From an uncultured Chloroflexia bacterium (GTDB taxonomy: Bacteria > Chloroflexota > Anaerolineae > Caldilineales > Caldilineaceae): DNA of 64,000 bases. Both the position numbers and the translations under genes were made by a program. The stretch lies in assembly GCA_963839515.1 (NCBI GenBank), contig CAWIVN010000030.1:32040-96039 (forward strand), read 5' to 3'. Under the pieces are notes generated by a model. The model saw only the letters and a list, made by a program, of their open reading frames with translations, ran no database searches and had not been told where the DNA came from. Shown one piece after another: positions 14,479 to 36,449 of the stretch (the stretch's first letter is position 1; every line of letters starts with the position of its first letter).

Positions 14479-14745
14479 TCCGGACTACACTCATGTGTCC
14501 CTGGGATCTGCGAGATCCTGGGGACATTTTTTTGCTGCGGGTGCCGTTGATTGGCGTACGCCCCATGTCCGGCAGCCATATGCCGTCTGTACGTACACAA
14601 GCCGTACTCCGAACGCCGCAGTTGTGTGGACGTTTTTTGTATTTTCCAAGCATGTGTCGATCTCTTGTGAGTCAGCCGTGCAAATCTGGCCAGTGCGATG
14701 CCGTTCGATTGCACGCGATATCACACAAATCCAAGGAGGATTACG

Positions 14746-16197: not shown

Positions 16198-16436
16198 GCC
16201 GCAGCAAGTCAGCAGAACGTCAACAGCAAGCAGGAATACCCTCGGGCCGTCAATTGGCCCGGGGGTATATTTTTGGAGCACATTTCCTGGAGGCGAAGGC
16301 CTTCTGGCAGCCTGCTTGCGCAGTTTTGTTTGCGTGTTTGTCAGCGCATGCGGTATGCTGTGCGGAACCGCCCGTCGCGCCGCTTGCGCGGCGGGGTGGT
16401 CGAACAACAATCAAATCTTTGCATGGCGAGAGTTGG

Positions 16437-18881
16437 ATGCCCTTGACTGCCTTGTTTGTCTGCGTCATCGCGCTTGCCTTGGCCGGACCGGCCTTGTGGC
16501 TGCTGCGACCCCACCGTGCCCACTGGTTTGCCTGGCTGGCCGCAATTTCCCCCGCGGCCGTCTTTGCCTGGTTAGCCCTACAGATTCCCCTAATATCTGG
16601 GTCTGATGGCGTCGGCCGATCCCTGATCGAGACCTATCCCTGGGTTCCCAGCTTGGGATTGACGCTGTCTTTGCGCCTCGACGGGCTTTCCCTCTTCTTC
16701 GGCCTGATCGTGACGGGCATTGGCGCCTGTATCGCCTTTTATACCAACTACTATTTCGAATACGACGAGCAACAGGGCTATTTCTACCTGCTGCTCTTCT
16801 TCTTTATGGCAAGCATGTTGGGGCTGGTGCTGGCCAATGACTTGCTGCTGCTCTTCATCTTTTGGGAAGGCACGAGCATCAGCTCTTACCTGTTGATTGC
16901 TTTTAAGAGCGGGTACAAGGGTGCAGTGGAAGGGGCACGGCGAGCGCTGATCGTGACGACGGCGGGCGGGCTGGCGATGTTGGGAGGAATGTTGCTGCTG
17001 GGCCAGGCAGCAGGCACCTTCCAGATCGACGAGATCCTGGCCATGCCCCAAATGGCGAGCTTTCCACTCTTCCCTTGGGCCCTGGCACTGCTGATGCTGG
17101 GAGCATTCACCAAGTCGGCCCAGTTCCCATTTCATTTCTGGCTGCCGGGAGCAATGGCCGCGCCCACGCCGGCCAGCGCGTACCTGCATTCGGCCACAAT
17201 GGTCAAGGCGGGTGTTTACCTGCTGGCGCGCCTGCACCCAGCGTTTGCAGTCTCGCCGCTCTGGTTCTGGCCGCTGTTCCTGGTTGGCGGCTTCACCATG
17301 CTGTTGGGGGCCGTGAGTGCCATCCGCTACCGCGACATGAAAGCAATCCTGGCCTATACCACTATCAGCGCATTGGGTACCATGGTGATGCTGCTGGCGT
17401 TCCCTGGCGCTGAGCCTGCCATGGTCGTGGTGGTCACCATTCTGGCGCACGCTTTGTACAAAGCGCCTTTGTTTCTCATGGCCGGCATCGTAGATCATGC
17501 CATGGGTACACGCGATTTGCGCAGCCTGGCAGGGTTGTGGCGGCCACTGCCTTGGGTAGCGGCAGTGGCTATCTTGGCCGGCGTCTCGATGGCCGGTGTT
17601 CCGCCGACATGGGGGTTCCTCGCCAAAGAACTTGCCCTGGACGAGTTCTATCATCTTTGGACACATGGAGGAACTCTGGCCAACGAAGTACAGGTGCAGG
17701 CGTCCACGATTGGCATTGTGGGCTTGGTGGCGGTGCTCGTCATGGCCGTGTTTAGCGGCGGAGCGATCTTCACCATGATTTGGGAGGCGTTCTTGCGCCC
17801 GAACGCTGACGACACGCACGGGGCCCAACTGCACCACGCGCCGTCGTTCTGGTTCGTGCTGCCGGCACTATTGCTGGCCGTGGTCGGGGCAGTGACTGCA
17901 CTCTGGAGCGGAGCATTTCAACCACTGCTGAATGCGGCGGCGGGCTCGATCGCTTACGGTGTGGACGGTACATTGGTGGACAAGACGCTCAAGCTTTGGT
18001 ACGGCTGGACACCGGTTTTCATCATGAGCCTGGTGGTGCTGGCCGTGGCCGTACTGGTCGTGTTTGTGCGCCGTTATGTGCGCGCTGCGCTGGAAAGAAC
18101 GCCGCCCAACCTCAACGGGACGCGCATCTATGATGCCGTTGTCGACGCCATCTACGGCTTTGCCTACCGCCTGACGAAGGTGATTCAAGGCGGTCCGATG
18201 GCGCCGCAGGCAGCAGTCACGTTATTGGCAGGTGTGGCGGTCGTGGTCATCGGCTATTGGCAGACAGATTGGGGCACGCTCATCGCATTCAAGACCACTG
18301 TTCCGCTGCCGATCGAGTTCTTGATCGTGGCGGTGGCCTTGGTGTCGGCGATGGCAACCGTGCGGGCACGCTCGCGGCTGAGCGCAATCATCAGCCTGGG
18401 CGTGGTAGGCATCGCCGTGACGCTCTTCTTCGTATTCTATAGCGCGCCCGACCTGGCGCTGACGCAGCTGCTGATCGAGGTCTTGACCGTCATCCTGCTT
18501 GTGCTGGTCTTCTTCCGCGTCAAGCCGGACCAAATGGCTGCCAACGAGGACGTGCGCCGCAAGGCGGGACGTTGGGTGCTCGCCATCGGTATGGGCATCT
18601 TTGGGGCAGGGCTGGTGCTGGCGAGCTACTTTTATCAGGTCGGGCCCAGCATCAGTCCTTATTTTCTGGCCAACTCGATCCCGATTGGGCAGGGCGGCAA
18701 CGTGGTCAATGTGATCCTCGTAGACATTCGCGGCTATGACACGCTGGGCGAGATTACGGTGCTTGGATTGGCAGCAATCGGCGGGTATGCGGTGTTGCGC
18801 AGCCCGCAGCTGCATGTGCTGCGGCGGAAGTTGAACCGGCGACTGCGGATGGTGGTGGGGCAAGAGAGCGGCAATGATTGA
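16437..18881 (+). CDS. mrpA: Na+/H+ (Mrp) antiporter subunit A, including a C-terminal MrpB-like domain
   Basis: NuoL/MrpA-type membrane protein (WLPGAMAAPTPASAYLHSATMVKAGVYLL). The ORF opens at 16254, but MPLTALF at 16437 is the likely start. Confidence 0.8.
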   Translation: MPLTALFVCVIALALAGPALWLLRPHRAHWFAWLAAISPAAVFAWLALQIPLISGSDGVGRSLIETYPWVPSLGLTLSLRLDGLSLFFGLIVTGIGACIAFYTNYYFEYDEQQGYFYLLLFFFMASMLGLVLANDLLLLFIFWEGTSISSYLLIAFKSGYKGAVEGARRALIVTTAGGLAMLGGMLLLGQAAGTFQIDEILAMPQMASFPLFPWALALLMLGAFTKSAQFPFHFWLPGAMAAPTPASAYLHSATMVKAGVYLLARLHPAFAVSPLWFWPLFLVGGFTMLLGAVSAIRYRDMKAILAYTTISALGTMVMLLAFPGAEPAMVVVVTILAHALYKAPLFLMAGIVDHAMGTRDLRSLAGLWRPLPWVAAVAILAGVSMAGVPPTWGFLAKELALDEFYHLWTHGGTLANEVQVQASTIGIVGLVAVLVMAVFSGGAIFTMIWEAFLRPNADDTHGAQLHHAPSFWFVLPALLLAVVGAVTALWSGAFQPLLNAAAGSIAYGVDGTLVDKTLKLWYGWTPVFIMSLVVLAVAVLVVFVRRYVRAALERTPPNLNGTRIYDAVVDAIYGFAYRLTKVIQGGPMAPQAAVTLLAGVAVVVIGYWQTDWGTLIAFKTTVPLPIEFLIVAVALVSAMATVRARSRLSAIISLGVVGIAVTLFFVFYSAPDLALTQLLIEVLTVILLVLVFFRVKPDQMAANEDVRRKAGRWVLAIGMGIFGAGLVLASYFYQVGPSISPYFLANSIPIGQGGNVVNVILVDIRGYDTLGEITVLGLAAIGGYAVLRSPQLHVLRRKLNRRLRMVVGQESGND

Positions 18882-19383
18882 GATCTACCTGCGATTGGTC
18901 GACTATATTCTGACGCCGGTGCTGATTATGCTGGCGATCTTGCTGTTCTTGCGCGGTCACGACTATCCAGGCGGAGGCTTTATTGCCGGGCTGATGGTGG
19001 CAGCGGCCATCGAGTTGCACATTCTGGCGCGCGGCGCCCCCGATGTGCGCAGGCGTTTAGGCCGCTACCTGCTGCCATTAGCCGGGACGGGGCTGTTGAT
19101 CGCTCTATCGGCGGCGTTGATCGGTCTTTATGCTGGCGGCTTCTTCAAGAGCGTGTGGATCGAGTTCTACTTCCTAGGGATCAAGTTCAAGGTGGGAACA
19201 CCGCAGATGTTCGACTTGGGCGTCATGCTGGTCGTCATCGGGATGGCAATCACGTTCCTGCTCAACCTCAGCGAACGCGGGGACAATGAAACTGAGGAAC
19301 AGGTTGAGGGCCCGGATCAGCCCAGCCTCGAGACGCTTGACCTGCGGGAGCCTGGCACGGCAAGACAGGTGGAGGTTCCATGA
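18874..19383 (+). CDS. mrpB: Mrp antiporter subunit B
   Basis: MnhB-like motif GHDYPGGGFIAGLMVA. Overlaps the mrpA stop. Confidence 0.7.
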   Translation: MIEIYLRLVDYILTPVLIMLAILLFLRGHDYPGGGFIAGLMVAAAIELHILARGAPDVRRRLGRYLLPLAGTGLLIALSAALIGLYAGGFFKSVWIEFYFLGIKFKVGTPQMFDLGVMLVVIGMAITFLLNLSERGDNETEEQVEGPDQPSLETLDLREPGTARQVEVP

Positions 19384-19892
19384 CGGTGCTGATGTTAGCT
19401 GTGCTAGCAGGAGCACTCTTCACGTGCGGGACGTTGCTGATCCTGCAGCGAGGGCAGATTAAGGTTGTATTGGGCCTGGCGCTGTACACCCATGCCGTCA
19501 ACCTGTCATTGTTCAGCACCGGCGAGTCGACACACGGCGCACCGGCAATCATTCCGCACGAGGGTGATCTGGCGCAGATCCTGGCCACAAGGACATTTGC
19601 CGACCCACTGCCGCAGGCGCTAATCCTGACGGCGATCGTGATCAGCTTTGGCGTAACGGCTTTCCTGGTGGTGCTGGTGAGCCGCCGCGACTCATTCACC
19701 GGCGGCGACTTGGCCCCGGGCGAACTGGCAGCGGTGCTGAGTTCGGCAGACCCATTTATGCAGGCGTCAGGTGGAGTTGCGCATCACGAAGCGGCCGACG
19801 ATTACGATATTTTCCAGTACGAGTTCGACGAGGTATACGACCGCCCTGTGGCCGAGGCCGAGGTGGCGCACGAGGAACTGCCAGGTACATAA
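19380..19892 (+). CDS. mrpC: Mrp antiporter subunit C (NuoK-like) with an acidic C-terminal extension
   Basis: N-terminal 110 aa is NuoK/MrpC-like (LGLALYTHAVNLSLFS). It is followed by about 60 extra acidic residues. The ATGA overlap with mrpB indicates coupling. Confidence 0.75.
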   Translation: MTVLMLAVLAGALFTCGTLLILQRGQIKVVLGLALYTHAVNLSLFSTGESTHGAPAIIPHEGDLAQILATRTFADPLPQALILTAIVISFGVTAFLVVLVSRRDSFTGGDLAPGELAAVLSSADPFMQASGGVAHHEAADDYDIFQYEFDEVYDRPVAEAEVAHEELPGT

Positions 19893-19906
19893 GGACTAGA
19901 GGGAGC

Positions 19907-21486
<1,580 letters not shown>

Positions 21487-21490
<4 letters not shown>

Positions 21491-21963
21491 AATTGGGCGC
21501 TGTATTGCTGCTGAATATTTTGGTGGCCTTGGTGTGGCAGGCGATGCAGCCGGTGGCGGGACCGGGCGACTATATTCTGGGCTTTGTCGTCGGCTTCCTG
21601 ATGCTGGCGATCCTCTATCGGCCGTATGGCCGACGCACGTGGGCGGCGTCGACCTATGCCGTGTTCCTGGTGTGGGAGATCGTGAAGAGCAGCTTCCAGG
21701 TTGCGGGCATCATCCTATCGCCGCATGCCCACCTGCGCCAGGGAATCGTGGCCATTCCGGTGGAACCATGCACGGACTTCGAGTTGGCGCTGCTTGCCTC
21801 GTCGATCACGTTAACGCCGGGAACATTGAGCATAGACGTGGAGAAGACTGCCAGCGGGCAGCGGGTGCTGTATGTACATAACCTGGTCGTGGACGACCCG
21901 GAAGAGATGCGGCGCCAGATTAAGGCTGATTTCGAGCGGCGTATCATGCGCTTTACGCGTTAG
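21487..21963 (+). CDS. mrpE: Mrp antiporter subunit E
   Basis: MKLGAVLLLNILVALVWQ ...; ATGA overlap with the mrpD stop; size and hydrophobicity typical of MrpE. Confidence 0.7.
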
Positions 21964-21974
21964 GGAGTGGGTAA

Positions 21975-22265
21975 ATGAGTTACGATGCGTGGTTGATGGT
22001 GTTGCTAACGCTGCTCGGTGTGTCGCTGCTGCTGTGCTTTATCCGGTTGTACATTGGCCCAAATCCGCCCAACCGTACGGTTGCGTTTGACACGATCGCT
22101 ATTCACGCCGTCGGCATCATGGCCCTGTACACGATGATCTATGATGTGCCTTCGCTGTTTGACGCCGCCATCATTATCGCCGTGCTCGGCTTTGTGGGAA
22201 CGATGATGTTTGCCCGCTACATGGAACGGGCGAACTTGCAGGATTGGGAACGAGACGACCACTAG
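21975..22265 (+). CDS. mrpF: Mrp antiporter subunit F
   Basis: 96 aa; LRLYIGPNPPNRTVAFDTIAIHAVGIMAL is typical of MrpF/PhaF. Confidence 0.7.
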   Translation: MSYDAWLMVLLTLLGVSLLLCFIRLYIGPNPPNRTVAFDTIAIHAVGIMALYTMIYDVPSLFDAAIIIAVLGFVGTMMFARYMERANLQDWERDDH

Positions 22266-22283
22266 CGATGGAGACGCCATAAA

Positions 22284-22640
22284 GTGTCATTGCAGGAATC
22301 AGCGGCAGTCATCCTGGCCGCAATCGGCGTGGTATTCATGTTGATCAGCGCCATCGGCCTGCTACGTTTGCCGGATGTGTTTTCGCGCATGCATGCGGCG
22401 GGCAAGGCATCAACCGTGGGCGTAAGTTGCCTGCTGCTCGCAGCCGGGGTACATTTCTGGGACCAGAACCTATTCTTCCGCATGGTGCTGCTGATAGCGC
22501 TGGTATTCGCCACGGCCCCGATATCGACTGCGGCAATGGCACGTGCGGCGTATAAGACGGGGACGCCCAAAGGGATGCACTTGCAGATCGACGAGATGGG
22601 CGACAAGGAAATTCCCAAGCCGGCAACCGGAACGGACTAA
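22284..22640 (+). CDS. mrpG: Mrp antiporter subunit G
   Basis: 118 aa; LLRLPDVFSRMHAAGKASTVG matches the MnhG motif. Confidence 0.7.
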   Translation: MSLQESAAVILAAIGVVFMLISAIGLLRLPDVFSRMHAAGKASTVGVSCLLLAAGVHFWDQNLFFRMVLLIALVFATAPISTAAMARAAYKTGTPKGMHLQIDEMGDKEIPKPATGTD

Positions 22641-22646
22641 CAACTA

Positions 22647-23864
22647 ATGGATGCAATACATTCCAGCGGTCTTGCTATTGAGAGCTTTGGTGAAACGATG
22701 GCATTTGATTTTGACAATGCGCCCGAGCGGCGCGGGACAGACAGCGCCAAGTGGGCCTACTTTGGGCCGGATGTACTGCCGATGTGGGTGGCGGACATGG
22801 ATTTTGCTTCGCCGCCTGCAATCAAGGAGGCGCTGCAAGAGCGCGTAGCGCATGGGGTATTTGGCTACGGCTGGGATAGCGCCAAGCTGCGGGCAGCAGT
22901 GGTGGAGCGCATGGCGCGGCTCTATGACTGGAGCATTGAAGCGAGCGACATCTTCTTCCTGCCGGGGCTTGTCAGCGGGCTAAACGTGGTGAGCCGGGCG
23001 ATTGGCGAGCCAGGCGACGGTGTAGTCGTGCACAAACCAGTATATGGGCCGTTCTTGAGCGCGCCGGTCAACCAGGGGCGCACGTTGCAGGTTGCGCCCC
23101 TAAAGCTGCACAGCGAGGGCCAGCGCCTGCACTACACGGTGGACTTCGAACGATTTGAGGAGGTCGTAGACGATTCGACGCGCATGTTCATCCTCTGCAA
23201 CCCGCACAACCCGGTCGGCCGTGCCTTCCGCCGCGACGAGTTACTGCAGATGGCAGATATATGCGAGCGACACAATCTGGTGATTTGCTCAGACGAAATT
23301 CACTGCGACCTGTTAATGGAAGACACGAAGCATATTCCAGTCGCCAGCCTGTCGTCCGAAATTGCGCAGCGCACGATCACGCTGATGGCGCCGAGCAAGA
23401 CTTTCAACGTGCCGGGTTTGGGATTCAGCATGGCGATCATTCAGAACGTCGAAATGCGCAAGCAGATCGAAAAGACGGCAATGGGCATCGTGCCGCATGC
23501 CAACATCTTGGGGGTAGTCGCCGCCGAGGCGGCCTATACGCGCTGCGACGATTGGCTGCGCGAGCTGAATGCCTATCTGACCGCCAACCGGGATTACGCC
23601 GTCGCCTATTTGCAGCGCGAACTGCCCGCCGCGCGCATGACCTGCCCGGAAGCGACCTACCTGCTGTGGGTGGACTGCCGCGAGCTTGGCATCGAAGGAA
23701 CGCCGAGCGATTTCTTTCTCAAGCAGGCCAAGGTAGCGAGCAACGACGGGAAATGGTTTGGGGAAGAGGGCGAAGGATTTGTGCGCCTGAATTATGGCTG
23801 CCCGCGCCACATACTGCAGAAGGGGCTGGAGATGCTCGTGGAGTCTGTTCGCAATGGTCAATGA
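22647..23864 (+). CDS. PLP-dependent class I/II aminotransferase of the MalY/PatB C-S lyase type
   Basis: RRGTDSAKW ... WVADMDF ... SKTFNVPGLGFS (PLP-Lys region). The ATG at 22698 is an alternative start. Confidence 0.75.
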   Translation: MDAIHSSGLAIESFGETMAFDFDNAPERRGTDSAKWAYFGPDVLPMWVADMDFASPPAIKEALQERVAHGVFGYGWDSAKLRAAVVERMARLYDWSIEASDIFFLPGLVSGLNVVSRAIGEPGDGVVVHKPVYGPFLSAPVNQGRTLQVAPLKLHSEGQRLHYTVDFERFEEVVDDSTRMFILCNPHNPVGRAFRRDELLQMADICERHNLVICSDEIHCDLLMEDTKHIPVASLSSEIAQRTITLMAPSKTFNVPGLGFSMAIIQNVEMRKQIEKTAMGIVPHANILGVVAAEAAYTRCDDWLRELNAYLTANRDYAVAYLQRELPAARMTCPEATYLLWVDCRELGIEGTPSDFFLKQAKVASNDGKWFGEEGEGFVRLNYGCPRHILQKGLEMLVESVRNGQ

Positions 23865-24891
23865 CTTCTTGAATGTAGCACTACAATTTACCCCACTGCT
23901 CGCCATTCTCCTGTTCGCCAACTGGGGCGAGCGGCTGCGCCAGCGGGATGTCCCTTACATGGCCCCTGTCGTCGTCAGCTATGTTGCCACCGCCCTGCTC
24001 TATATTGCAGCCTTTGTTTTCGGCCTCATTTTTCTGCTCACCGCCACCATGCCCGCGGCGCCGATTCCGATCGAGTCGCCGGCGTGGCTTGTCTTTGGCG
24101 TCCTCGTACCCAGCGTAATCGGCTTGCTTCTGCTGCTGAAGCCCGCGCGACGCCTCGTCGCCCGTTTCACCAATTTGGAGCCGGATCATCCCGTCCACAC
24201 GGTGGCGCTGGCGCTGACGATGACGCCCATTCTCAACCAAGGCCTGACGCTTGGCATCGGTCTTGAGACACTGACCAACCTCATCAGCCAGCAGGCGGAG
24301 CAGACCGGCATGGCACCGATTTCGCTGGCGAGCCTGTGGGCGCAAAACATCATGTTTGTGCTGATGGCCTTGATAGGCGTAGGCTGGCTCACGCGCCTTA
24401 CCTTTGGCGAGTCGCTGCGGCGGCTTGGGATCGTGCGGCCCAGTGGCCGCGATATTATGATCGGTGTGGCCGCCGCGCTGGTGTTGATTCCAGTGATCCC
24501 CATCCTGCTTGGGTTGCTTGGCAACGCGGGCATGGGCGTAGATCAAGACGTCGAGTCATTGACCGAGGTGTTGACGGGTGCGTTATTTGCGACGCCGCTG
24601 GGAATTCTCTCGGTCGGCCTTGCGCCGGGCATTGGCGAGGAGTCGATCTTCCGCGGCGCGATGCAACCGCGCTTTGGCCTGGTGCTTACTTCGATCTTGT
24701 TTGCCCTGGTACATGGGCAGTATGGGCTCTCGTTGGCGACGCTGGTCGTGTTTGGCCTTGGTCTCGTGCTGGGCATCGTGCGCAACCGCACCAACACGAC
24801 TACGTCCATGCTCACGCATGCGCTGTACAACTCGGGTACTGCCTTGCTGGCTTACCTGGGCATCCAGTTCCTGAGCCAACAGCGGCCCTAG
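23854..24891 (+). CDS. CPBP / CAAX-type intramembrane metalloprotease family protein
   Basis: Motifs GIGEESIFRG (EExxxR) and FALVHG in a multi-transmembrane protein. Confidence 0.7.
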   Translation: MVNDFLNVALQFTPLLAILLFANWGERLRQRDVPYMAPVVVSYVATALLYIAAFVFGLIFLLTATMPAAPIPIESPAWLVFGVLVPSVIGLLLLLKPARRLVARFTNLEPDHPVHTVALALTMTPILNQGLTLGIGLETLTNLISQQAEQTGMAPISLASLWAQNIMFVLMALIGVGWLTRLTFGESLRRLGIVRPSGRDIMIGVAAALVLIPVIPILLGLLGNAGMGVDQDVESLTEVLTGALFATPLGILSVGLAPGIGEESIFRGAMQPRFGLVLTSILFALVHGQYGLSLATLVVFGLGLVLGIVRNRTNTTTSMLTHALYNSGTALLAYLGIQFLSQQRP

Positions 24892-25427: not shown

Positions 25428-26984
25428 ATGAGCAGCAAAGTGTCTTGGCGCAAGGACATGCCGCCGCTGCTGCACTTCCTGGAACAGAAACTTAACCATC
25501 GCGTGCGCGGCCACGACGAAGTCCTCGGCTATGAGCTTTATTTTGTCGATCTTTCCGCGTGGAAACTGCGCTTCTCCAACGCCACACCCGTATTGTGGAT
25601 GAAAGAGAATGACCTTGCCTCGTTCGACAACCCGCGCCAAATTGCGGAGAGCGTGATCGAAGCTGTGCGCATGCGCAACCTGGTCGAGCGCCAGACAATC
25701 GTATTGGTGGACGGCCCCGAAGCGGGACTGCGCGAAGCCTTTCGCATCAGCTTTATGCCCATTATGGTGCTTGACAGCATTGACGTCCACGCCGTAATGG
25801 AATCACGGCGGGCGACCGGCGAATTGCTCGACCGCCTTTGTATTCAGCTTAGTCCGGCGTTGCTTTCGCCCTACGAGATCAGCAAACCTGTTACCGGCTC
25901 GCGCTTTTTCGGCCGCGAGTCGGACCTACGCCGGATCCTATATGGCAGTGACAGCAACTACGCCGTGATGGGCATACGCCGTATCGGCAAGTCTTCGCTG
26001 CTGCGCGAGGTCGAACGCCGGCTGCAGGAACAAGTACAAGAAACCGTGCAGGAGGGCTTTAGCAGCGAGGATATCGCACGCCGCATTTTTTACAAGGACT
26101 GCAGTTCGATCACTTCGTCGGGAGCACTGATGCAGGCCGTGGTCAACCACTTCCATCCGCAGGAGTTGAATCGGCTCAACCACCGCCAGTTTCCCATCTT
26201 TTTCCCGGATTTCATGCGTCGCATGGCCAAGCGCTACGGTGGACAGCTTGTGTTCTTGCTCGACGAGTTCGATGCGCTGCTGCGCGCCGAGTTCGCCAAC
26301 GAGGAGTTGCTCGACCAACTGCGCGCTTCCAGTAACGAGGGCAGCTGCCGCTTCATTTTTGCCGGCTTCCGCGACTTGCTCAACGAGACTAGCAGCCTGA
26401 GCTCGCCGTTCTTCAATTTCGCCAAACCCCTGCGGCTCAAGGAGTTTAGTCGCGAGGACGCTGCCAGCCTCATTCTCATGCCACTTGAGAGCTTGCGCAT
26501 CCGACTCGAACGCCGCGAAGAAATTATAGACATAATTTACGGCGAAACCGCTGGTCAGCCCAACCTGATCCAATATTACTGTTCCTACTTGGTGGACAAG
26601 CTCGACCGTAGCGGCAATCGTGCGGTTTCGCCCGAGGATGTAGCGGGCGTGCCTGACGACGAAAACTTCCGATCGTTTCTGGTCAACACCTTTATGGACA
26701 ATACCGATCACCTGGAGAAGGCGCTGGTCTTCTCACTGATTCTTTTTGACCCAGTGAGCGAAAAACGCTACGACCTGGAAATGATCGATCAGGCGCTGCG
26801 CAAGGGTGGAATCGACACACGTTTCCTACAGCTGGAGCGAGCCTGCCGCAACCTTGAGCTCACGGGCATTTTGGACAAGCGCGGCCGACACTACCATTTT
26901 GCCATCCCAGTTTTCCCCCGCGTGTTGCGTGCGAACTACAACATAAAGTATCTGCTCGGCAAGATCCGTTATGAGGGTATATAG
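25428..26984 (+). CDS. P-loop ATPase of AAA_16 / Arch_ATPase (DUF234) type with a C-terminal winged-helix domain and an uncharacterised 150-aa N-terminal domain
   Basis: FFGRESDLRRI ... Walker A GIRRIGKSSLL ... Walker B LVFLLDEFD; C-terminal wHTH-like segment. Confidence 0.6.
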   Translation: MSSKVSWRKDMPPLLHFLEQKLNHRVRGHDEVLGYELYFVDLSAWKLRFSNATPVLWMKENDLASFDNPRQIAESVIEAVRMRNLVERQTIVLVDGPEAGLREAFRISFMPIMVLDSIDVHAVMESRRATGELLDRLCIQLSPALLSPYEISKPVTGSRFFGRESDLRRILYGSDSNYAVMGIRRIGKSSLLREVERRLQEQVQETVQEGFSSEDIARRIFYKDCSSITSSGALMQAVVNHFHPQELNRLNHRQFPIFFPDFMRRMAKRYGGQLVFLLDEFDALLRAEFANEELLDQLRASSNEGSCRFIFAGFRDLLNETSSLSSPFFNFAKPLRLKEFSREDAASLILMPLESLRIRLERREEIIDIIYGETAGQPNLIQYYCSYLVDKLDRSGNRAVSPEDVAGVPDDENFRSFLVNTFMDNTDHLEKALVFSLILFDPVSEKRYDLEMIDQALRKGGIDTRFLQLERACRNLELTGILDKRGRHYHFAIPVFPRVLRANYNIKYLLGKIRYEGI

Positions 26985-29828
26985 GTGAACAACTGGCCCT
27001 CCGAACCAACCGGCAGCTGGGAACTCACTCCATATGCGGGCGACAGCCAGTTCAAGCGGCAGCGTCTGCGCCATCTCGATCGCATTCGCCAAGTAGTCGA
27101 ACACGTCCGTCAGCATGATTATGTCGTGCTCCTCGGCCCCGCCTACAGCGAAAAGACGCGACTGCTCAACGACGTGGACGAAAAGCTCGCCGCTAGCGAC
27201 CTTTATACACCGATCTATGTCAATCTCTGGCGCGTGCGCACCGACGACGAGGCGGCGTTCTTTTCTAGCCTGGCCCAGGTGATCTGTCGATCCGAGCGCA
27301 TCTGCGGTCAGCCCTATGCCGATATGGAGCGGGCAGATCGCACCTATGACGGAGGAAGTTTTCGTTCCTTTCTAGACACGATCGCGCAGCATCACGACCG
27401 GCATGTGGTGCTGCTAATTGACCATTTACAGGTGCTGCCGCAGGATTTGACGCACCGCCTGCTGCAGTTGTTGCGCGCTGCCTACATGGAGCGCCAGCCT
27501 ACTGCCCAACACCAGGTCGACGTCGTCGTGGCGGGAAGCGCCGCCTTGGCTGAACTCTCGCATGACAGCACCTCGCCCTTCAACATGGCGCACCCCGTGT
27601 TTCAAGGGCCACTCACAGTTGACGCTTCGCTGGCACTAACCCGCGCCAACTTGGACGCTGCGGGAACACCATACTCGCCGGGAGCGGCTGAGCGCTGCGT
27701 TTACTGGGCTGGTGGCGACAGCTACCTCATCCCGCAATTGATCAGCTTGTGCCAAGAGAAACTCCAAGGCTATCGTAATCAGCGCATTACTCGCACGGTC
27801 GTGGATCATACCGCCGAAGAGTTTGTCGCTGATCTACCATGCGATCCGATGCGGGCAGCTATTCAGGTGATCGAAGAAGACCCAGATACATTGCTCGACA
27901 TCGTCACGCTGCTGCGCGAGGCAGTGCTGCCGCGCAACCAGGCACACCAGACAATCCTGCGCACCGGACTGGATCGCCTGCAATTGTCCGGGGCCGTCGT
28001 ACTGGATGGGGACAGCTACCACATCAAGAATGAGATATACCGCCGCGTGCTACACCGTCATTTCGTACAAGGACGTGTTGCCCATGTGCTGCGCATGAAC
28101 GGGCGATGGGAGGAGGCAATTCAGTACCTATCGACCGAACTAGAGAGCGAACCGCTTGCACCCAGCGACATCGAGGCCAGCCGCACGGTTCTTCTAGACG
28201 CAATCGTCCAGTCAATCTATGCGGCCGGCCGCGAGGAAGATGCCTATCGAGCGTTGCTGGAGGGCATTCACCTGGGTTTCCATCTCTCAGGGGTACGCGT
28301 CTATCGCGCCTACGCCGGCCGCGGCGAACTGCGCCTGGTTGAAAGCGACGACGAAATTACCCCGGCGGATGCGGTCATCGACCTCAACGATGTTGCGCAA
28401 GCCGAAGTGCGCACGTTTCGTGGTGGTGACTATGCTCTGCGCGGCGAGATGGGAAGCAAACGGCTGTTGGCAGCATTGACGCCGGAACGGCGGCCTATCG
28501 GCATGGTTACCATCGATCACTTTAGCGCCGAAACCGAACCTCACGTCTATCCACCCCATCTCTTTGCCTTGCTGCGGTTTCTGCGCCACGCATCCAGCGC
28601 CATCGAGAACGTCATGATGCGCAGCGCTATTCAAGAGATCGGTCGGGCCGTACTCAACGCCAGCACGCTCACCTCCAACCTGGACCACGTGCTGCAGGTC
28701 GTGCTTAACGCCACGGGCGGAGACGCCGCGCAATTGCACTTACTTGACGCAGAGTACGCCCATCTGACACGTTTTGTTCACACTGGAGACATGGCAGCGG
28801 TTCGCGATGCCGGCGAGGCGCGTATTGAGCTGGAGTTGAGCAACCACCCGGCAGTACAGGCACTACGCAATAATACACTCACGCCATCACGCCAGGCTAC
28901 GCCGCCAGGAATGTATGCCTATCTGCCGCTTGTAGCTGGTGGCAATCAACTTGGCGTGCTTGTGCTCTTCTTTGGCGGTTTACACAGTGGTCTCAGCGCC
29001 GAAGATCGCAAAACATTGGAGACTTTTGCTGACCAGGTTGCGATTGCAGTGCACAACATGCAGTTGCTACGCCGTACCGACGACGCCCTGCAGGAGAAAG
29101 TACGGCAGCTTGACGCCCTGCGGCGCCAGGCCGTCCAGGAACGCGACCAGGAGTTGCAGGATGTGGCAACCGCACTCGTCCATCGCATTGGTGGCGCGAC
29201 CGGCGATATTCCCGTTCACCTGGCGCGTGTACGTGCGGCAGTCGCGAACGAGAGTGAGGAACAGATCGCCGCGCGCAGCGAGGTGTTTGATGCACTCGAA
29301 CACGTGGAAAAACGCATCCAGCACGTGCAAGACCTGCTGCCGTCGCTAGAGGAGATTGCGAACCTGGCTGCGGTCAGCTTCCGGCCCGTGGAGCTGTCGG
29401 GCCTGCTGGAGGAATTGGTAAACGAATTGGTGTCTAGTCCCGGCGTAGTCGAAGCGGACCTGGCTGTCGACAAGGATGTCATCGTCGAAGGCAGCCGCAC
29501 CTTGCTGCGCGATGCCTTGCGCTCGCTGCTGGAGAACGGCTACGAGGCCATGCCGCGTGGCGGCACGTTAACCGTACGCGTCACCAAACTGCCGGGAGGG
29601 CACGTCCAGATTCGCATCGAAGATACGGGGGTGGGCATTGCTGATAAGCACAAGAGCAAGATGTTTCAGCTAGGCTTTAGCACCAAGGGAGGACGCAGGC
29701 GCAACCGTGGACGGGGTATGTTCACCTGCCGAGCTATCGTGCGCAAACATGGCGGGGAAATCGCCATCGATTCGCGCGAGGGCCACGGTACAGTCGTCAC
29801 GATAGTACTGCCACTCCTGGGAGTCTAG
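26985..29828 (+). CDS. Cytoplasmic sensor histidine kinase: N-terminal P-loop ATPase domain (paralog of the upstream ATPase) + GAF domains + HisKA-like/HATPase_c
   Basis: VVLLGPAYSEKTRLL (Walker A-like), VVLLIDHLQ (Walker B-like). C-terminal HATPase_c (LLENGYEAM ... IEDTGVGI ... GRGRGMF ... HGGEIAI). No transmembrane segments. The GTG start abuts the upstream stop. Confidence 0.7.
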   Translation: MNNWPSEPTGSWELTPYAGDSQFKRQRLRHLDRIRQVVEHVRQHDYVVLLGPAYSEKTRLLNDVDEKLAASDLYTPIYVNLWRVRTDDEAAFFSSLAQVICRSERICGQPYADMERADRTYDGGSFRSFLDTIAQHHDRHVVLLIDHLQVLPQDLTHRLLQLLRAAYMERQPTAQHQVDVVVAGSAALAELSHDSTSPFNMAHPVFQGPLTVDASLALTRANLDAAGTPYSPGAAERCVYWAGGDSYLIPQLISLCQEKLQGYRNQRITRTVVDHTAEEFVADLPCDPMRAAIQVIEEDPDTLLDIVTLLREAVLPRNQAHQTILRTGLDRLQLSGAVVLDGDSYHIKNEIYRRVLHRHFVQGRVAHVLRMNGRWEEAIQYLSTELESEPLAPSDIEASRTVLLDAIVQSIYAAGREEDAYRALLEGIHLGFHLSGVRVYRAYAGRGELRLVESDDEITPADAVIDLNDVAQAEVRTFRGGDYALRGEMGSKRLLAALTPERRPIGMVTIDHFSAETEPHVYPPHLFALLRFLRHASSAIENVMMRSAIQEIGRAVLNASTLTSNLDHVLQVVLNATGGDAAQLHLLDAEYAHLTRFVHTGDMAAVRDAGEARIELELSNHPAVQALRNNTLTPSRQATPPGMYAYLPLVAGGNQLGVLVLFFGGLHSGLSAEDRKTLETFADQVAIAVHNMQLLRRTDDALQEKVRQLDALRRQAVQERDQELQDVATALVHRIGGATGDIPVHLARVRAAVANESEEQIAARSEVFDALEHVEKRIQHVQDLLPSLEEIANLAAVSFRPVELSGLLEELVNELVSSPGVVEADLAVDKDVIVEGSRTLLRDALRSLLENGYEAMPRGGTLTVRVTKLPGGHVQIRIEDTGVGIADKHKSKMFQLGFSTKGGRRRNRGRGMFTCRAIVRKHGGEIAIDSREGHGTVVTIVLPLLGV

Positions 29829-29859
29829 ACATACCCGTTGGGAAGGAGTCACTGCCGCC

Positions 29860-31428
29860 ATGCAAAATGCACGCATTTTGATTCTCGACGATGATGAACA
29901 GTGGGTTAAGACCTTCCGCACTGTCCTAGATGGAAAGGTTGCCAGTATCGACAGCGTACACAGCTTGGCAGAGGCCATCGACCTGCTCGACAAACGCTAC
30001 TTCAACGTTGCCATCGTGGACCTACGCCTGAATAATGATGACTCGAGCGACGATTCAGGCATGGAGTTTTTGGCCGCGGTCCGGAAACGCGGGTTGGCGG
30101 AGGTATTGGCTCCCATTATGTGCACAGCGTACGGCAACCTTACGAATGCTATAGAAGCCTTGCGCGACTACCAAGTGGTTGATTTTATTAATAAGGGAGA
30201 CTTTCAGGCGGAGTCACTGCTGCTGGCAGTCAGAAAGGCCCTCGAACGGCAGCACTGCGCCAACCATATCGAAATTGAATTGGAAGGGGAGCAGCCGTTT
30301 GCCAGCCTATGGGAAGGTAAAGACTGGGCGCGCAGGGAGGATCCCAAGGAGCTGGCGGCAGAGTTGCACGACCTACTGTGCCGGCTATTTCCGCGTGCTG
30401 ATCACCTGTGGATTCGCCCGCTGGCGGCAGGACAGAGCGGGGCCGGCATACTTGAAGTTGAACCCACATATCGCGCTACCGCCGGCGAGATCGACATCGT
30501 CAAGTTTGGCAAGCGAGATAAGATTCTGCAAGAGGTCGACAACTACACAGAGGGTGTTGATCTCTATGTCAGCAACCAAAGCTCCACCAAGGTCGAAGGC
30601 GCCCATGGCCGCGTGATGGGGGCAATCCGTTACCGATTGATTGGCGCAGGCGACGGCAAGGCCGATTCACTCGCCGACCGTTACCGGAACCACGATGTGG
30701 CCGACGTCTGTGCAGTACTCGACAACCTATTTGGCGTGACCTGCCGGCGCTGGTACGACAATCGCGAGCAGCCCCGGCGTTACCGTGATTTGGTCGGATT
30801 GTACACTGAAGGGCTGCACATTGAGTGGGACGAGGTGTGGAGCGCTGCCGCACACTGCGGCGTCGACGTCAGCCGGCCAAAAATCGAGTTCCCAGGCATT
30901 TCGGGCGATTTCATCAATCCTCGCCATTGGTTAGCGGAGCGCAAACACATCTGCTCGCATCGTGTGTGGCTAGCTTTTACGCACGGCGATCTCAATGAAC
31001 ATAATGTCCTGGTAGCACAAGACCGCCGCTGCTGGCTGATCGACTTCTACCGCACTGGCAAGGGACACATCTTGCGTGACTTTGTAGAATTGGAAACGGC
31101 CTTCAAGTTCGGCTTGACTCAACTTGATAGCTACGCTGACCGAGAACAGTTGGAGAGTCTGCTGCTGGAACAAAAGAGCTTCAAGGAAGAGCTAAGGGTA
31201 GACCAAACTCGCCCCTATGCACGCGCCATCTCTGTGATTGCACACCTACGCTCGCTGGCAGGCGAGGTCCTCGGCTTGGAGCGCGAAATGGAGGAGTATC
31301 AGGTGGCCCTCCTCCTGCAGACACTAAAGCTGCTCAGTCTGAACTTTCTGTACCCAGACGAACGAAGCCGCGGTCATGTTCTGTTGGCGGCCGCCATGAT
31401 CTGCTCTAAGCTAGGCCAGCCAAACTAG
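29860..31428 (+). CDS. Response regulator: REC receiver domain fused to an APH / protein-kinase-like phosphotransferase domain
   Basis: REC domain ILILDDDE ... VAIVDLRL (phospho-Asp) ... CTAY ... FINKG. C-terminal GQSGAGILEV (Gly-rich loop), IVKFGK (Lys), HGDLNEHNVLV (catalytic loop), LIDF (DFG-equivalent). Confidence 0.65.
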   Translation: MQNARILILDDDEQWVKTFRTVLDGKVASIDSVHSLAEAIDLLDKRYFNVAIVDLRLNNDDSSDDSGMEFLAAVRKRGLAEVLAPIMCTAYGNLTNAIEALRDYQVVDFINKGDFQAESLLLAVRKALERQHCANHIEIELEGEQPFASLWEGKDWARREDPKELAAELHDLLCRLFPRADHLWIRPLAAGQSGAGILEVEPTYRATAGEIDIVKFGKRDKILQEVDNYTEGVDLYVSNQSSTKVEGAHGRVMGAIRYRLIGAGDGKADSLADRYRNHDVADVCAVLDNLFGVTCRRWYDNREQPRRYRDLVGLYTEGLHIEWDEVWSAAAHCGVDVSRPKIEFPGISGDFINPRHWLAERKHICSHRVWLAFTHGDLNEHNVLVAQDRRCWLIDFYRTGKGHILRDFVELETAFKFGLTQLDSYADREQLESLLLEQKSFKEELRVDQTRPYARAISVIAHLRSLAGEVLGLEREMEEYQVALLLQTLKLLSLNFLYPDERSRGHVLLAAAMICSKLGQPN

Positions 31429-32588
31429 ACAGTCTCTGTGCGCGTCGTCTTCAATAAAGCGTTGTCCGCTTCGTCCAGCGGATAGTCCGGATCCATTCCG
31501 TTATCTGCTTTGGGTGCAGATGCGAAGGCTGCCGCAACCGGCGCATTCGGCGCGGCGGCTGGTTCCGGCTGCTGGTTTGCCACTGGTCGGTGTGGCTCCG
31601 GCTCCGTCGCCGCGAGCGGCATAGGTTTGGCGGGTTGCTTTTCCGCCGGCGGGTTGGTGCCAGTCGTCCCCGTGTCAGGCCGGAGTACATGACGCATGCT
31701 TGGCTGGCCATCCTGCAACAGCATTTCGGTGTTGAGCATGCCGCCCGTGAAAATGCTGTGTATGTCTGCCGAGGGATTCTGGATAGTGTTGAAGAGCTGG
31801 ATGAGACCTGCTTCGGACATATTGGGGGCAGCCTTTTGTACGCGGCGGATAAAGTCCGAACGCGCCGAACTGCTGACGTCGCTTCGCAACATGTCCACAT
31901 AGGCACTGCTGATTTCGTACGGCAGAGTAAGTCCGTTGATCAGCACCGGCGCATCGGTAACCATGATGCCGTGTGGTCGCAATGCATTACGCACAGCCGG
32001 CTCCAGAGCTACCTGCAAAGCGCGAGCCTTGGCGCCAGCAAAAGGGCTGAAGAGCTTGACAATGTCCACACGATCAGGTGCTTCCGCAGCACCCAATTGT
32101 CGCTCAGGTGTTTTGCCGCTGGTCTGCGCCCCAGGGTTGGTAGGCGGCGTCGCCTGCTCCAACTGATAGACAAGGTCCTGAAATACGCGCTTGAGGAGCG
32201 TGCGCTGCTGCTCCGCGCGCTCGGCGTCGGTATAGTAGATCTCGTGCCGATTCATGTGCTTGGGTTCGAGCCAGTAGGAATAGCGCAAATTGACCGTCAC
32301 CGGCATTCCGCCTTCGGTAAAGACATTGGGTACGACTTCCTTTGCCTCGCGCTGGCGTACGTAAACCTTCGTTGCTTCGTTTTCGATCGGGCTAAGGAAA
32401 TAGTAACCAGGTCCCGCGGTGCGTTTGAATCGATCCATTTGTTCGATTACCGCCACGTAGCCTTCCTCAGCTTTGCGAATGCGTGTGGACAGGTAATACA
32501 CGGTGGCGACTGTAAGTGCAGAAAGTAGGCCACCCAACAGGCACAGTACCACTAGTTCCGGATCAGGGTTTCCCATAGGTAGCCACAT
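31425..32588 (-). CDS. SPFH / band-7 (stomatin-prohibitin-flotillin-HflK/C) domain membrane protein with a Pro-rich C-terminal tail
   Basis: N-terminal transmembrane segment, then GYVAVIEQMDRFKRTAGPGYYFLSPIE ... VFTEGGMPVTVNLRYSY, typical of SPFH. Disordered Pro/Ala-rich C-terminal 90 aa. Confidence 0.65.
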   Translation of the reverse strand: MWLPMGNPDPELVVLCLLGGLLSALTVATVYYLSTRIRKAEEGYVAVIEQMDRFKRTAGPGYYFLSPIENEATKVYVRQREAKEVVPNVFTEGGMPVTVNLRYSYWLEPKHMNRHEIYYTDAERAEQQRTLLKRVFQDLVYQLEQATPPTNPGAQTSGKTPERQLGAAEAPDRVDIVKLFSPFAGAKARALQVALEPAVRNALRPHGIMVTDAPVLINGLTLPYEISSAYVDMLRSDVSSSARSDFIRRVQKAAPNMSEAGLIQLFNTIQNPSADIHSIFTGGMLNTEMLLQDGQPSMRHVLRPDTGTTGTNPPAEKQPAKPMPLAATEPEPHRPVANQQPEPAAAPNAPVAAAFASAPKADNGMDPDYPLDEADNALLKTTRTETV

Positions 32589-33773: not shown

Positions 33774-36449
33774 ATGACTGACGAGATTGAGGCTGACGCT
33801 GAGGCCAAGGCTGAGACGGCGCCCACAAACGGTCCGATCGACGACGCGGCCGAAGCTACTACCGACACGGTGTCCATAGAGTCCGGCGATCAAGAGTCTC
33901 AAGAAGATCAAGAAGTAATTGGAGAAACCGCCTCATCTCCAGTCAGAAGACGCCGCGGACGGCCTGCCGGCAGCCGCAATAAGACTAAGCCAAAGCTGGC
34001 GCCGCCAGTGGAGGAAAGCGCACCGCCGACCGCGACAAGGCAGAACCACGAGGCACAGCCTGCTCCTCGTCGTGTGCGGCGGCGGGCAACCCCCGCCGCC
34101 AACGGGTCCACTCCCAGCGGCACGCCGCCAGATGTGAGGCGAGCCGGCGAGACAACTATGAATGGTATGAATGGAGCTGAGGGCGTCGCAGTCACTGGGG
34201 CGCAGAGAGGCGACTTGGCACCGGAGCTCAGTCCCGAATTGGCAAGCAGCATGTCGGAGCGTTACGTTCGGTTCCTGCATAACTTTCAGCGCGACCGCAC
34301 GCTGCCGCCTCACCCCATTATCGAGCCACGCTACGACATTACGACATTGTCGATCGACGAGCTGAGCAGTTCCGAAGAAGTGTACAATCGCGAGCTCAGC
34401 TGGCTGGATTTCAACTGGCGCGTGCTGCATGAAGCGGTGGACCGACGCACCCCGCTGCTCGAACGGCTGAAGTTCATCGCCATTACTTCTTCCAACCTGG
34501 ACGAGTACTTTAGCAAACGCGTAGGTGGCCTCAAGCGCCAGAAGGCAGCCGGCGTCGCCAATCTTACGCTCGACGGCTGGGCGCCGGACGTGCAGCTTTC
34601 GCTCATCGCCGCGACCGTACGCCGGATGATCGACGTCGAAAGCGACTGCTTACACGACGACATTCTGCCGGCCCTGGCCAAGCATGGCATTCGCATTTTC
34701 AATTATGCCGAGCTGACGCCCGCGCAGCACGAGAAGCTGACGAGCTTCTATCAGAAAGAAGTCTACCCGATCCTGACACCGCTGGCCGTCGATCCTGGCC
34801 ATCCCTTCCCGTTTATCTCCAATTTGAGCCTGAGCCTCGGGGTCGTGCTGCGCGACCCGGCCAGCGGCGACGTGCAGTTTGCGCGCGTGAAGGTGCCGCA
34901 GACCCGCCAGCGTTGGGTGCCGCTCGACAGCCTCATGCACTTCGTGCCGCTGGAACAGGTGATCACCGCCAACCTCGACACGCTTTTCAAAGGCATGGAG
35001 GTGCTGGCTGTCTATCCCTTCCGCGTAACCCGCAATGCGGACCTTGCGCGCAACGAGGAAGAAGCGGACGACCTGCTGGAGATGATCTCGGAAGAGCTGC
35101 GCGAGCGCCGTTTTGCCCCGGTGGTACGGCTGGAAGTAGACGAGAAAATGCCGGCGGAAGTGCTGGCGCTGTTGCAGAATCAACTCCACCTGGACAATGA
35201 CGACGTCTACCATGTGCGCGGGTTGCTGCGGCGCGTGGACCTGTTCGCGCTGGCCGACATCAATCTGCCGCATCTCAAATACGAGCCATGGACTCCGCTG
35301 ACGCCTTCGCGCTTTGCCGGCATCAACAGCAAGGGGCGGCCGGGCGAGATGTTCAGCGCCATCCGTCAAGGCGACATCATCGTCCATCACCCATACCACA
35401 GCTTTCAAGGCAGCACGCAGATGTTTGTGGAGGCGGCGGCGCGCGACGCGCAGGTGCTTGCGATTAAGCAAACACTATATCGCACAAGCGACAACTCGCA
35501 GATTATCGCCGCGCTGATCCAAGCGGCCGCAATGGGTAAGCAGGTGGCGGTGCTGGTCGAAGTCAAGGCACGCTTTGACGAGGCCAAAAATATAGAGTGG
35601 GCGCGCAAACTGGAAGAGGCGGGCTGCCATGTCGCCTATGGGTTGGTCGGACTAAAAACGCACTGCAAGGTGTCGTTGGCTATTCGCCAAGAAGAGGACG
35701 GACTGCGCACCTATTACCATATCGGTACGGGCAACTACAACGCCAAGACGGCAGGCGTCTACACGGACCTCGGTTACTTTAGCTGCAACCCCGATATCGG
35801 CGCCGACCTGCTGGACCTTTTTAACTATTTGACAGGGTACAGCTACCAGATCGACTATCGCAAGCTATTGGTTGCCCCCGTCAACATGCGCAACCGCTTT
35901 ATCGAGCACATTGATCGCGAGATCGCACATGCCGTGGCAGGCAGGCCGGGACGCATCATTGCCAAGATGAACGGTTTGGAAGACCCGGCCATGGTGCGCA
36001 AGCTCTACGAAGCAAGCCAGGGGGGCGTGGATATCGACCTGATCGTGCGCGGCAACTGCCGGCTGCGTCCGGGTATTCCGGGGGTCAGCGACAACATTCG
36101 CATCATTTCGATTATCGGCCGCTTCCTAGAGCATTCACGCATCTTTTACTTCCACAACGACGGGGCGCCGCATTACTATATCGGCAGCGCCGACTGGATG
36201 CGGCGCAACCTCAGCAGCCGCGTCGAAGCTGCTACTCCGATTGAAGACCCACGATTGCAGGAATACCTGTGGTTTATTCTGCAGAGTTCGTTGGAAGATC
36301 ATCGCCAGGCGTGGGACTTGCTGCCCGACGGTCGTTATCGCCAACGCCTGCCCTGGTCTGGGAGCACCACGCTTGAATCAGGCGGCGTACAGGCCTATTT
36401 CATGCAGTACACGCGCATGACGGCGCCTGCGGGGGGCGTCGGGACGTGA
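33774..36449 (+). CDS. ppk: Polyphosphate kinase 1 with a roughly 180-aa low-complexity N-terminal extension containing an AT-hook-like motif
   Basis: PPK1 N, H and C domains (RYVRFLHNF ... [17 protein letters not shown] ... catalytic His region ... two PLD-like C-terminal domains). Perfect AGGAGG 7 nt upstream of the ATG at 33774. The extension contains [16 protein letters not shown]. Confidence 0.85.

Follow-up and report, generated by a model that had tools for sequence, protein, structure and literature searches.

What a response regulator might do when its output domain looks like a phosphotransferase is the question raised by one gene in the window, as we call the whole stretch of 64,000 nucleotides that was analysed. 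The initial annotation had read its product as a canonical receiver (REC) domain followed by a domain with the hallmarks of the ePK/APH phosphotransferase fold, and both parts of this reading hold up against Pfam. Response_reg is matched at residues 6-124 (E 1.3e-11), with the motifs around D54, T89 and K112 all in place (VAIVDLRL at 50-57, MCTAY at 87-91 and FINKG at 109-113), and the rest of the protein after REC matches TCAD9 (PF19974) with 112.1 bits against a cut-off of 40 (E 4.9e-32); these scores put the identity of the two domains beyond chance. The proposed kinase motifs are likewise found in the open reading frame, namely GQSGAG (191-196), VKFGK (214-218), HGDLNEHNVLV (375-385) and LIDF (393-396). 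Two details needed amendment. A lysine is present in VKFGK as the beta-3 residue, but the conserved one is the first of the two, K215, and not K218. The kinase domain does occupy the region proposed for it, at about residues 170-522, although the module, including an N-terminal helical extension, begins at about 136-180. With regard to other profiles, APH is matched marginally (23.9 bits against a cut-off of 23.2) at residues 371-411 only, and the catalytic loop attracts marginal or sub-threshold matches to APH, RIO1, Kdo kinase and choline kinase models. The Hanks-type profiles Pkinase (PF00069) and PK_Tyr_Ser-Thr (PF07714), which would take in the activation segment and APE-type features, have no match in the protein at E<=1. 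The protein carries no further output domain beside TCAD9. The coordinates of the gene, its sites and its neighbours are given in Table 1.

Table 1. Positions in the window of the REC-TCAD9 gene, its functional sites and the neighbouring cassette genes
Feature	Position	Strand	Basis or remark
First gene of apparent three-gene operon, 518 aa	25428..26984	+	N-terminal domain of ~155 aa, then nSTAND1-like NTPase
Putative cognate sensor histidine kinase, 947 aa as listed (true start uncertain)	26985..29828	+	
H733 codon	29181..29183	+	
Shine-Dalgarno-like AAGGAG	29843..29848	+	11 nt 5' of REC-TCAD9 ATG; sequence inspection
REC-TCAD9 response regulator gene	29860..31428	+	ORF of 522 aa plus stop, ATG start; Pfam REC, TCAD9 and APH
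Receiver (REC) domain, residues 1 to ~131	29860..30252	+	Acid pocket D10/D11, D54, T89, K112
Phospho-acceptor D54 codon	30019..30021	+	
TCAD9 / APH-like kinase domain, residues ~136-522	30265..31425	+	Includes N-terminal helical extension and C-terminal four-helix subdomain
Gly-rich loop GQSGAG, residues 191-196	30430..30447	+	G191 in 107/128 and G194 in 108/128 relatives
Beta-3 lysine K215	30502..30504	+	128/128 relatives
E225, presumed alpha-C helix partner of K215	30532..30534	+	128/128 relatives
Catalytic loop HGDLNEHN, residues 375-382 (H375, G376, D377, N382)	30982..31005	+	H/G/N in 128/128, D377 in 127/128 relatives
D395 (metal-binding, LIDF) through D407 (RDFVELE motif)	31042..31080	+	Both in 128/128 relatives
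SPFH/Band-7 protein, 387 aa, convergent	31425..32588	-	Pfam Band_7 E 5e-8
Small STAND-like NTPase, 334 aa	32563..33567	-	Walker A GLAGSGKS, Walker B LDEFE

Residue conservation was counted in 128 relatives with about 30% identity to the window protein, taken from the HMMER search described below. The catalytic residues proved to be conserved, as the kinase reading of the initial annotation required: none of the relatives departs from K215, E225, H375, G376, N382, D395 or D407, and D377 is kept in all except one. D407 lies 12 residues past the metal-binding Asp in an RDFxxLE context, which we take to resemble the second conserved motif of APH and choline kinases. The receiver is also well preserved in these relatives, D54 being present in 123, K112 in 118, a Thr or Ser at position 89 in 119 and an Asp or Glu at position 10 in 112; position 11 is Asp in 82 and Asn in 32.

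An AlphaFold2 model of the protein, built on an alignment of 47 sequences, has a mean pLDDT of 91.9 and a pTM of 0.89, with no segment below 50. Its receiver part takes up the (beta/alpha)5 receiver fold with a canonical active site, and its kinase part the bilobal kinase fold. Foldseek matches the model with probability 1.0 to APH(3')-Ia, -IIa and -IIIa, the amicoumacin kinase AmiN, APH(2'') and TvaE, so that the C-terminal domain has the APH-like kinase fold that had been proposed from its motifs. Given these matches and the missing Hanks-type hit, the TCAD9 domain is, as modelled, a eukaryotic-like kinase of the APH/choline-kinase type. The closest solved folds are mostly small-molecule kinases, with LxmK and TvaE also among them. 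The likeness should be read as one of fold, since APH(3'), APH(2''), AmiN, 5-methylthioribose kinase and choline kinase share only 10-15% identity with the REC-TCAD9 protein and their substrate-binding region is not comparable to its own. Moreover, we know of no matched APH-type enzyme that is controlled by a fused receiver. LxmK and TvaE act on peptides in RiPP pathways, and the fold alone therefore does not settle the class of substrate. For biosynthesis these two enzymes (LxmK in the case of lexapeptide) join a complex with a lyase or a leader-peptide partner, whereas Pfam, applied to a set of window ORFs between about 14.7 and 40 kb, revealed no RiPP genes.

A word-indexed search returned 88 homologs, almost all of about 520 aa with REC and TCAD9, whose sources, where named, are metagenome-assembled genomes of Caldilineaceae and Anaerolineae. 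When the kinase domain by itself was used in an exhaustive HMMER search, the representatives at 50% identity numbered 1,800 at E<=1e-3, 767 at E<=1e-10 and 170 at E<=1e-30. By a Pfam tally, REC is found in 83 of the 90 mid-length and 28 of the 36 long representatives (111/126), which makes REC plus TCAD9 the commonest architecture of the TCAD9 family; APH is matched at E<=1e-3 in 85 and 33 of them, respectively. Other arrangements are also present. In a large subclade (L044-L058) a REC-TCAD9 protein of about 840 aa bears a C-terminal SIR2_2-like region, scoring just under the Pfam cut-off in the L044 protein and over it in the representative P0169 (839 aa). The L044 gene is preceded by one for a 1,700-aa protein with an NTPase, four GAF domains and a histidine kinase, and followed by one whose product joins an nSTAND1-like NTPase to a winged-helix DNA-binding domain. 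Further architectures are REC-TCAD9-PNP_UDP_1, REC-TCAD9-HisKA-HATPase_c and REC-TCAD9 with TIR_2. At L049, a single protein of 2,253 aa contains EAD7, a STAND NTPase, CHAT, REC, TCAD9 and a SIR2_2-like region. A paralog with 58% identity (L009) lies behind genes for a MoxR-type AAA_5 ATPase and a weakly CHAT-like protein, and a vWA domain was not detected at that locus. In some relatives (P0114, P0126) GAF repeats are fused straight to TCAD9, with neither kinase nor receiver between them; such fusions condense the window's chain of GAF, histidine kinase, REC and TCAD9 and thereby speak for TCAD9 as the output that a GAF-sensed signal regulates.

In the window, the REC-TCAD9 gene is the third of three close-set genes on the same strand and is separated by 31 nt from the gene for the putative histidine kinase. 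At the N-terminal end of this kinase is a STAND-like NTPase, after which come GAF, the DHp region that contains H733, and HATPase_c. The 518-aa product of the first gene scores above the Pfam cut-off for AAA_22 and reaches 25.4 bits for nSTAND1 (cut-off 27.1). On the opposite strand, the SPFH gene overlaps the 3' end of the REC-TCAD9 gene with its own 3' end by 4 nt, and its product has an N-terminal hydrophobic stretch resembling a membrane helix and a Pro/Ala-rich tail. The 334-aa NTPase is again above the cut-off for AAA_22 and, at 26.5 against 27.1 bits, just below that for nSTAND1. Mutual matches after profile iteration indicate that the three NTPase modules of this cassette are paralogs. 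Walker A and B are canonical in the 518-aa and 334-aa proteins, and the kinase-fused NTPase has an atypical P-loop, GPAYSEKT, of the pattern GPxxxxK[ST]. No second response-regulator gene was found among the cassette genes scanned, and Pfam detected no MoxR (AAA_5), vWA or VMAP in the four cassette neighbours and nine other ORFs between about 14.7 and 40 kb. The cassette is surrounded by housekeeping genes, among them those for an Mrp antiporter, an aminotransferase, polyphosphate kinase and malate dehydrogenase.

The same neighbourhood was followed through 59 loci in species representatives of GTDB, with few exceptions filamentous Chloroflexota (Caldilineales, Ardenticatenaceae, Promineifilaceae, Thermoflexales and Anaerolineales), several of whose genomes carry TCAD9 paralogs; neighbours were counted at those 38 loci whose flanks were long enough. 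At 36 of them the TCAD9 gene has a histidine kinase gene no more than 6 kb away, in most cases immediately upstream in the same orientation. The NTPase-kinase fusion and a relative of the 334-aa NTPase are each present at 26/38, a relative of the 518-aa protein at 16/38 and an SPFH gene at 14/38; this last figure is probably an undercount, SPFH neighbours having mostly been missed by single-sequence phmmer and recovered by profile iteration. H733 is invariant in all 44 kinases found directly upstream of TCAD9 genes, in which the N, G1 and G2 boxes are also conserved. Kinase matches more than 6 kb away from TCAD9 are few in the same loci, at a roughly estimated one per 60 kb, so the 95% adjacency is not explained by kinase density.

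The linkage also extends to the other members. The small NTPase and the SPFH gene recur at 26% identity, in altered gene order and among unrelated flanks: at L005 the order is GAF-histidine kinase, TCAD9, NTPase and SPFH, all on one strand, and at L007 it is NTPase, SPFH, S1-REC-HATPase, a large hybrid kinase and TCAD9, with SPFH on the same strand as TCAD9. Background synteny was considered as the cause of this linkage and rejected, because the flanking genes (Mrp, aminotransferase) are common to four close lineages only and the cassette genes recur far more widely. The cassette thus appears to be a functional unit. Its place among housekeeping genes is shared by relatives with as little as 45% identity, and such constancy speaks more for a stable regulatory module than for a mobile defence island. 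Additionally, a scan with PADLOC-DB v2 recognised no known anti-phage defence system among the five cassette proteins and gave only two marginal matches (E 3e-3 and 6e-4, about 40-60 residues each), and together with the housekeeping surroundings this result disfavours a classical defence island.

Taken together, the linkage and the conserved sites point, with moderate probability in our estimate, to a pathway running from the histidine kinase through D54 to the TCAD9 kinase, with a low-molecular-weight compound as its most likely substrate. In this pathway REC-TCAD9 would form a dedicated two-component pair with the upstream kinase, as its response regulator. That kinase, which would be soluble, may sense a ligand via its GAF domain, possibly gated by the fused STAND-like NTPase module, and would then autophosphorylate H733. 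Passage of the phosphoryl group from H733 to D54 of the receiver would switch on the attached TCAD9 kinase, a domain of the aminoglycoside/choline/methylthioribose-kinase type, which would transfer a phosphate from ATP to its substrate. A small molecule is favoured as the acceptor, and a peptide or protein seems less likely, because the nearest folds are mostly small-molecule kinases, because of the similarity to APH, choline and Kdo kinases and because domains that process NAD or nucleotides are fused to TCAD9 in relatives. The low-molecular-weight substrates that Kaur et al. independently predicted for APH-like kinases of conflict systems agree with this preference. The genes of the pair belong to a conserved Chloroflexota cassette, whose other members encode two further STAND-like NTPases, paralogs of the kinase-fused one, and the SPFH protein as a membrane scaffold.

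The serious competitor to a small-molecule substrate keeps the architecture and the upstream signalling and makes TCAD9 a protein or peptide kinase which, after D54 phosphorylation, would act on Ser/Thr residues of the SPFH tail, of the NTPases, of itself or of an invader or host protein. Stk2-type abortive-infection kinases, YihE/SrkA and the lanthipeptide kinases would be its parallels, and it has to be taken seriously because LxmK and TvaE have the same fold. The profile matches tell against it, since all come from APH, RIO, Kdo or choline-kinase models and none from Hanks-type Pkinase, and so do the top structural matches, most of which are small-molecule kinases. We regard a protein or peptide target as possible but rather unlikely.

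Two other readings would take away either the catalysis or the phosphorelay. TCAD9 might be a pseudokinase, that is, a nucleotide-binding sensor or scaffold through which the receiver alters assembly with the NTPases or the activation of a fused SIR2 or TIR domain. Kaur, Burroughs, Iyer and Aravind (eLife 2020, 2021) report that catalytic residues are disrupted in most Ser/Thr/Tyr kinase domains of ternary systems, and in the REC-TCAD9 fusions to SIR2, TIR or PNP the C-terminal domain could be the true effector. The same authors, however, single out the APH-like kinases as active, for which they predict low-molecular-weight substrates, and the window protein has no other domain that could serve as output. 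Catalytic residues that are invariant or, in the case of D377, nearly so across 128 divergent members would not be expected of a pseudokinase, and on this ground the reading was rejected as very improbable. Alternatively, the receiver could be a switch that responds to nucleotides or small phosphodonors, with the adjacent kinase signalling to another regulator. Action without histidine kinases is what Kaur et al. 2021 predicted for the receivers of the MoxR-vWA ternary systems, and some relatives do lack a kinase nearby: the giant fusions at L049 and L067, L009, which lies beside MoxR, and L003, whose neighbour is a STAND protein of the NB-ARC-WD40 type. At the window locus the adjacency of the kinase, shared by nearly all the loci counted, and the intact receiver active site make this unlikely, and no other response-regulator gene was seen among the scanned cassette genes to receive the signal; we give this reading the lowest probability of all those considered, slightly below that of the pseudokinase.

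The five genes (nSTAND1-like NTPase, NTPase-GAF-histidine kinase, REC-TCAD9, SPFH protein and small STAND-like NTPase) might, as we tentatively propose, provide filamentous Chloroflexota with a signalling or immune-like system that has not been described before. In such a system, oligomerising NTPases at the membrane would gate a His-Asp phosphorelay, which in turn would license an APH-like kinase effector; in sister versions the same switch, REC-TCAD9, would set free the NAD- or nucleotide-degrading domains SIR2, TIR and PNP. A part in conflict or in cell-fate decisions of multicellular bacteria is suggested by these fusions and by the linked STAND-like NTPases. What is modestly new here is the conserved cassette of histidine kinase, STAND-like NTPases and SPFH protein, which would gain in interest if it proved to be a two-component-gated immune or cell-fate system; no description of the combination of NTPase-GAF-histidine kinase, small NTPase and SPFH protein was found in the literature searched.

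The REC-TCAD9 architecture itself is already catalogued, and the window protein joins a known family. TCAD9 stands for 'ternary complex associated domain 9' and is linked to vWA-MoxR-VMAP conflict systems (Pfam PF19974, InterPro IPR045544); KINtaro lists it as the protein-kinase-like family PKLF000039, equivalent to both entries. In the literature searched, outside which many subscription journals lie, neither an experimentally tested member of the TCAD9 family nor a characterised response regulator whose output is a kinase or APH domain was found. Among response regulators with an enzymatic output (CheB, PleD/WspR, RpfG, the RssB/PP2C type and PorX) the logic appears to be the same, in that a fused catalytic domain is controlled through phosphorylation of the receiver Asp.

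With regard to conflict systems, APH-like kinases and receivers were noted there by Kaur et al., who listed receivers as effectors and stated that histidine kinase domains were absent. The window protein has the same APH-like kinase domain, predicted to be active, as the TCAD9 proteins of the vWA-MoxR-VMAP ternary systems, where it is often preceded by a receiver. Furthermore, its relatives adjoin MoxR, CHAT, EAD7 and STAND genes and are fused to SIR2, TIR and PNP domains, and the family is found, as those systems are, in filamentous, multicellular bacteria. The window differs from them in that no MoxR, vWA or VMAP gene occurs in its scanned ORFs and in its linkage to a histidine kinase, which departs from the published view of receivers acting without such kinases; as the immune-like system tentatively proposed above, the cassette would be a two-component-controlled counterpart of the MoxR-vWA ternary systems. 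NTP-dependent conflict systems have a core STAND or AAA+ NTPase to which variable effector domains are linked. The cassette has three paralogous STAND-like NTPases, but nSTAND1 scores just below the cut-off in two of them, and the variety of effectors (SIR2, TIR, PNP, CHAT and EAD7) is seen in its relatives and not in the window. The sister versions with SIR2, TIR and PNP place the family in the NTP-dependent conflict repertoire of multicellular bacteria, and it clearly appears to belong to the effector-sharing network of those systems, with the version in the window seemingly wired to a two-component kinase.

The histidine kinase encoded directly upstream of the REC-TCAD9 gene carries in its N-terminal third a STAND-like NTPase module, the sequence of which departs from the usual pattern at two points. 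Its P-loop, GPAYSEKT, is non-canonical, the consensus in the family being GPxxxxK[ST], and its Walker B motif presents one Asp without the second acidic residue. The atypical P-loop and the single-Asp Walker B suggest that this kinase-fused NTPase may bind nucleotide without hydrolysing it. The GTG start of the kinase gene directly abuts the stop codon of the preceding gene, and the GTG that was called may not be the true start. The N-terminal region of about 155 residues in the 518-aa nSTAND1-like protein has no Pfam family match and is kept in 22 related loci; this domain could be the sensor or the adaptor of the cassette.

On the other side of the REC-TCAD9 gene, the SPFH gene is convergent with it, the two stops overlapping by 4 nt, and at its start it shares 26 nt with the 3' end of the NTPase gene upstream of it. 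The SPFH protein begins with a hydrophobic stretch resembling a membrane helix and ends in a Pro/Ala/Thr-rich tail of about 90 aa. With regard to the flanking genes, synteny of the antiporter and aminotransferase genes upstream of the cassette is confined to the four closest relatives. In polyphosphate kinase 1 the PP_kinase_N domain is preceded by about 200 additional N-terminal residues, a low-complexity stretch with many Ala, Pro, Arg and Glu; the start of this ORF may be over-called.

Features in the window and in three TCAD9 loci from GTDB species representatives (L numbers)
Sequence	Coordinates	Feature	Content
Window	14698..24891	Region upstream of cassette	DUF5666-repeat protein, Mrp/Mnh-type antiporter subunits, class I/II aminotransferase, Rce1-like CAAX protease
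Window	16254..21490	Mrp/Mnh-type antiporter subunit genes	
Window	25428..25892	N-terminal ~155 residues, 518-aa nSTAND1-like protein	
Window	26985..27980	STAND-like NTPase module, histidine kinase	P-loop GPAYSEKT
Window	31425..32588	SPFH protein gene	- strand
Window	33774..36449	Polyphosphate kinase 1 gene	
L044	4855..13866	Variant cassette	Three genes, NTPase-GAFx4-HK first
L049	5705..12466	2,253-aa ORF	EAD7, NPHP3_N/nSTAND3-type STAND NTPase, CHAT peptidase, REC, TCAD9, SIR2_2-like region
L067	6806..12478	Similar open frame	1,891 codons, stop to stop

In the variant cassette of L044, the first protein has 1,708 aa; the second, a REC-TCAD9 protein, is about 840 aa long and its C-terminal region is SIR2_2-like; the third is an nSTAND1-like NTPase of 477 aa that also carries a winged-helix domain of the OmpR type (Trans_reg_C). 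The L044-L058 subclade resembles this cassette, as judged by ORF length and neighbour matches, and no SPFH gene was detected in its loci. Among the TCAD9-family representatives, TCAD9 is also fused directly to GAF repeats without a receiver (P0114 and P0126), or found as REC-TCAD9-HisKA-HATPase_c (P0152) and REC-TCAD9-PNP_UDP_1 (P0215), while TIR_2 is present in 4 of the 36 long members. The L049 and L067 open frames have no histidine kinase nearby, and their products are all-in-one conflict-system proteins with the same REC-TCAD9 module.
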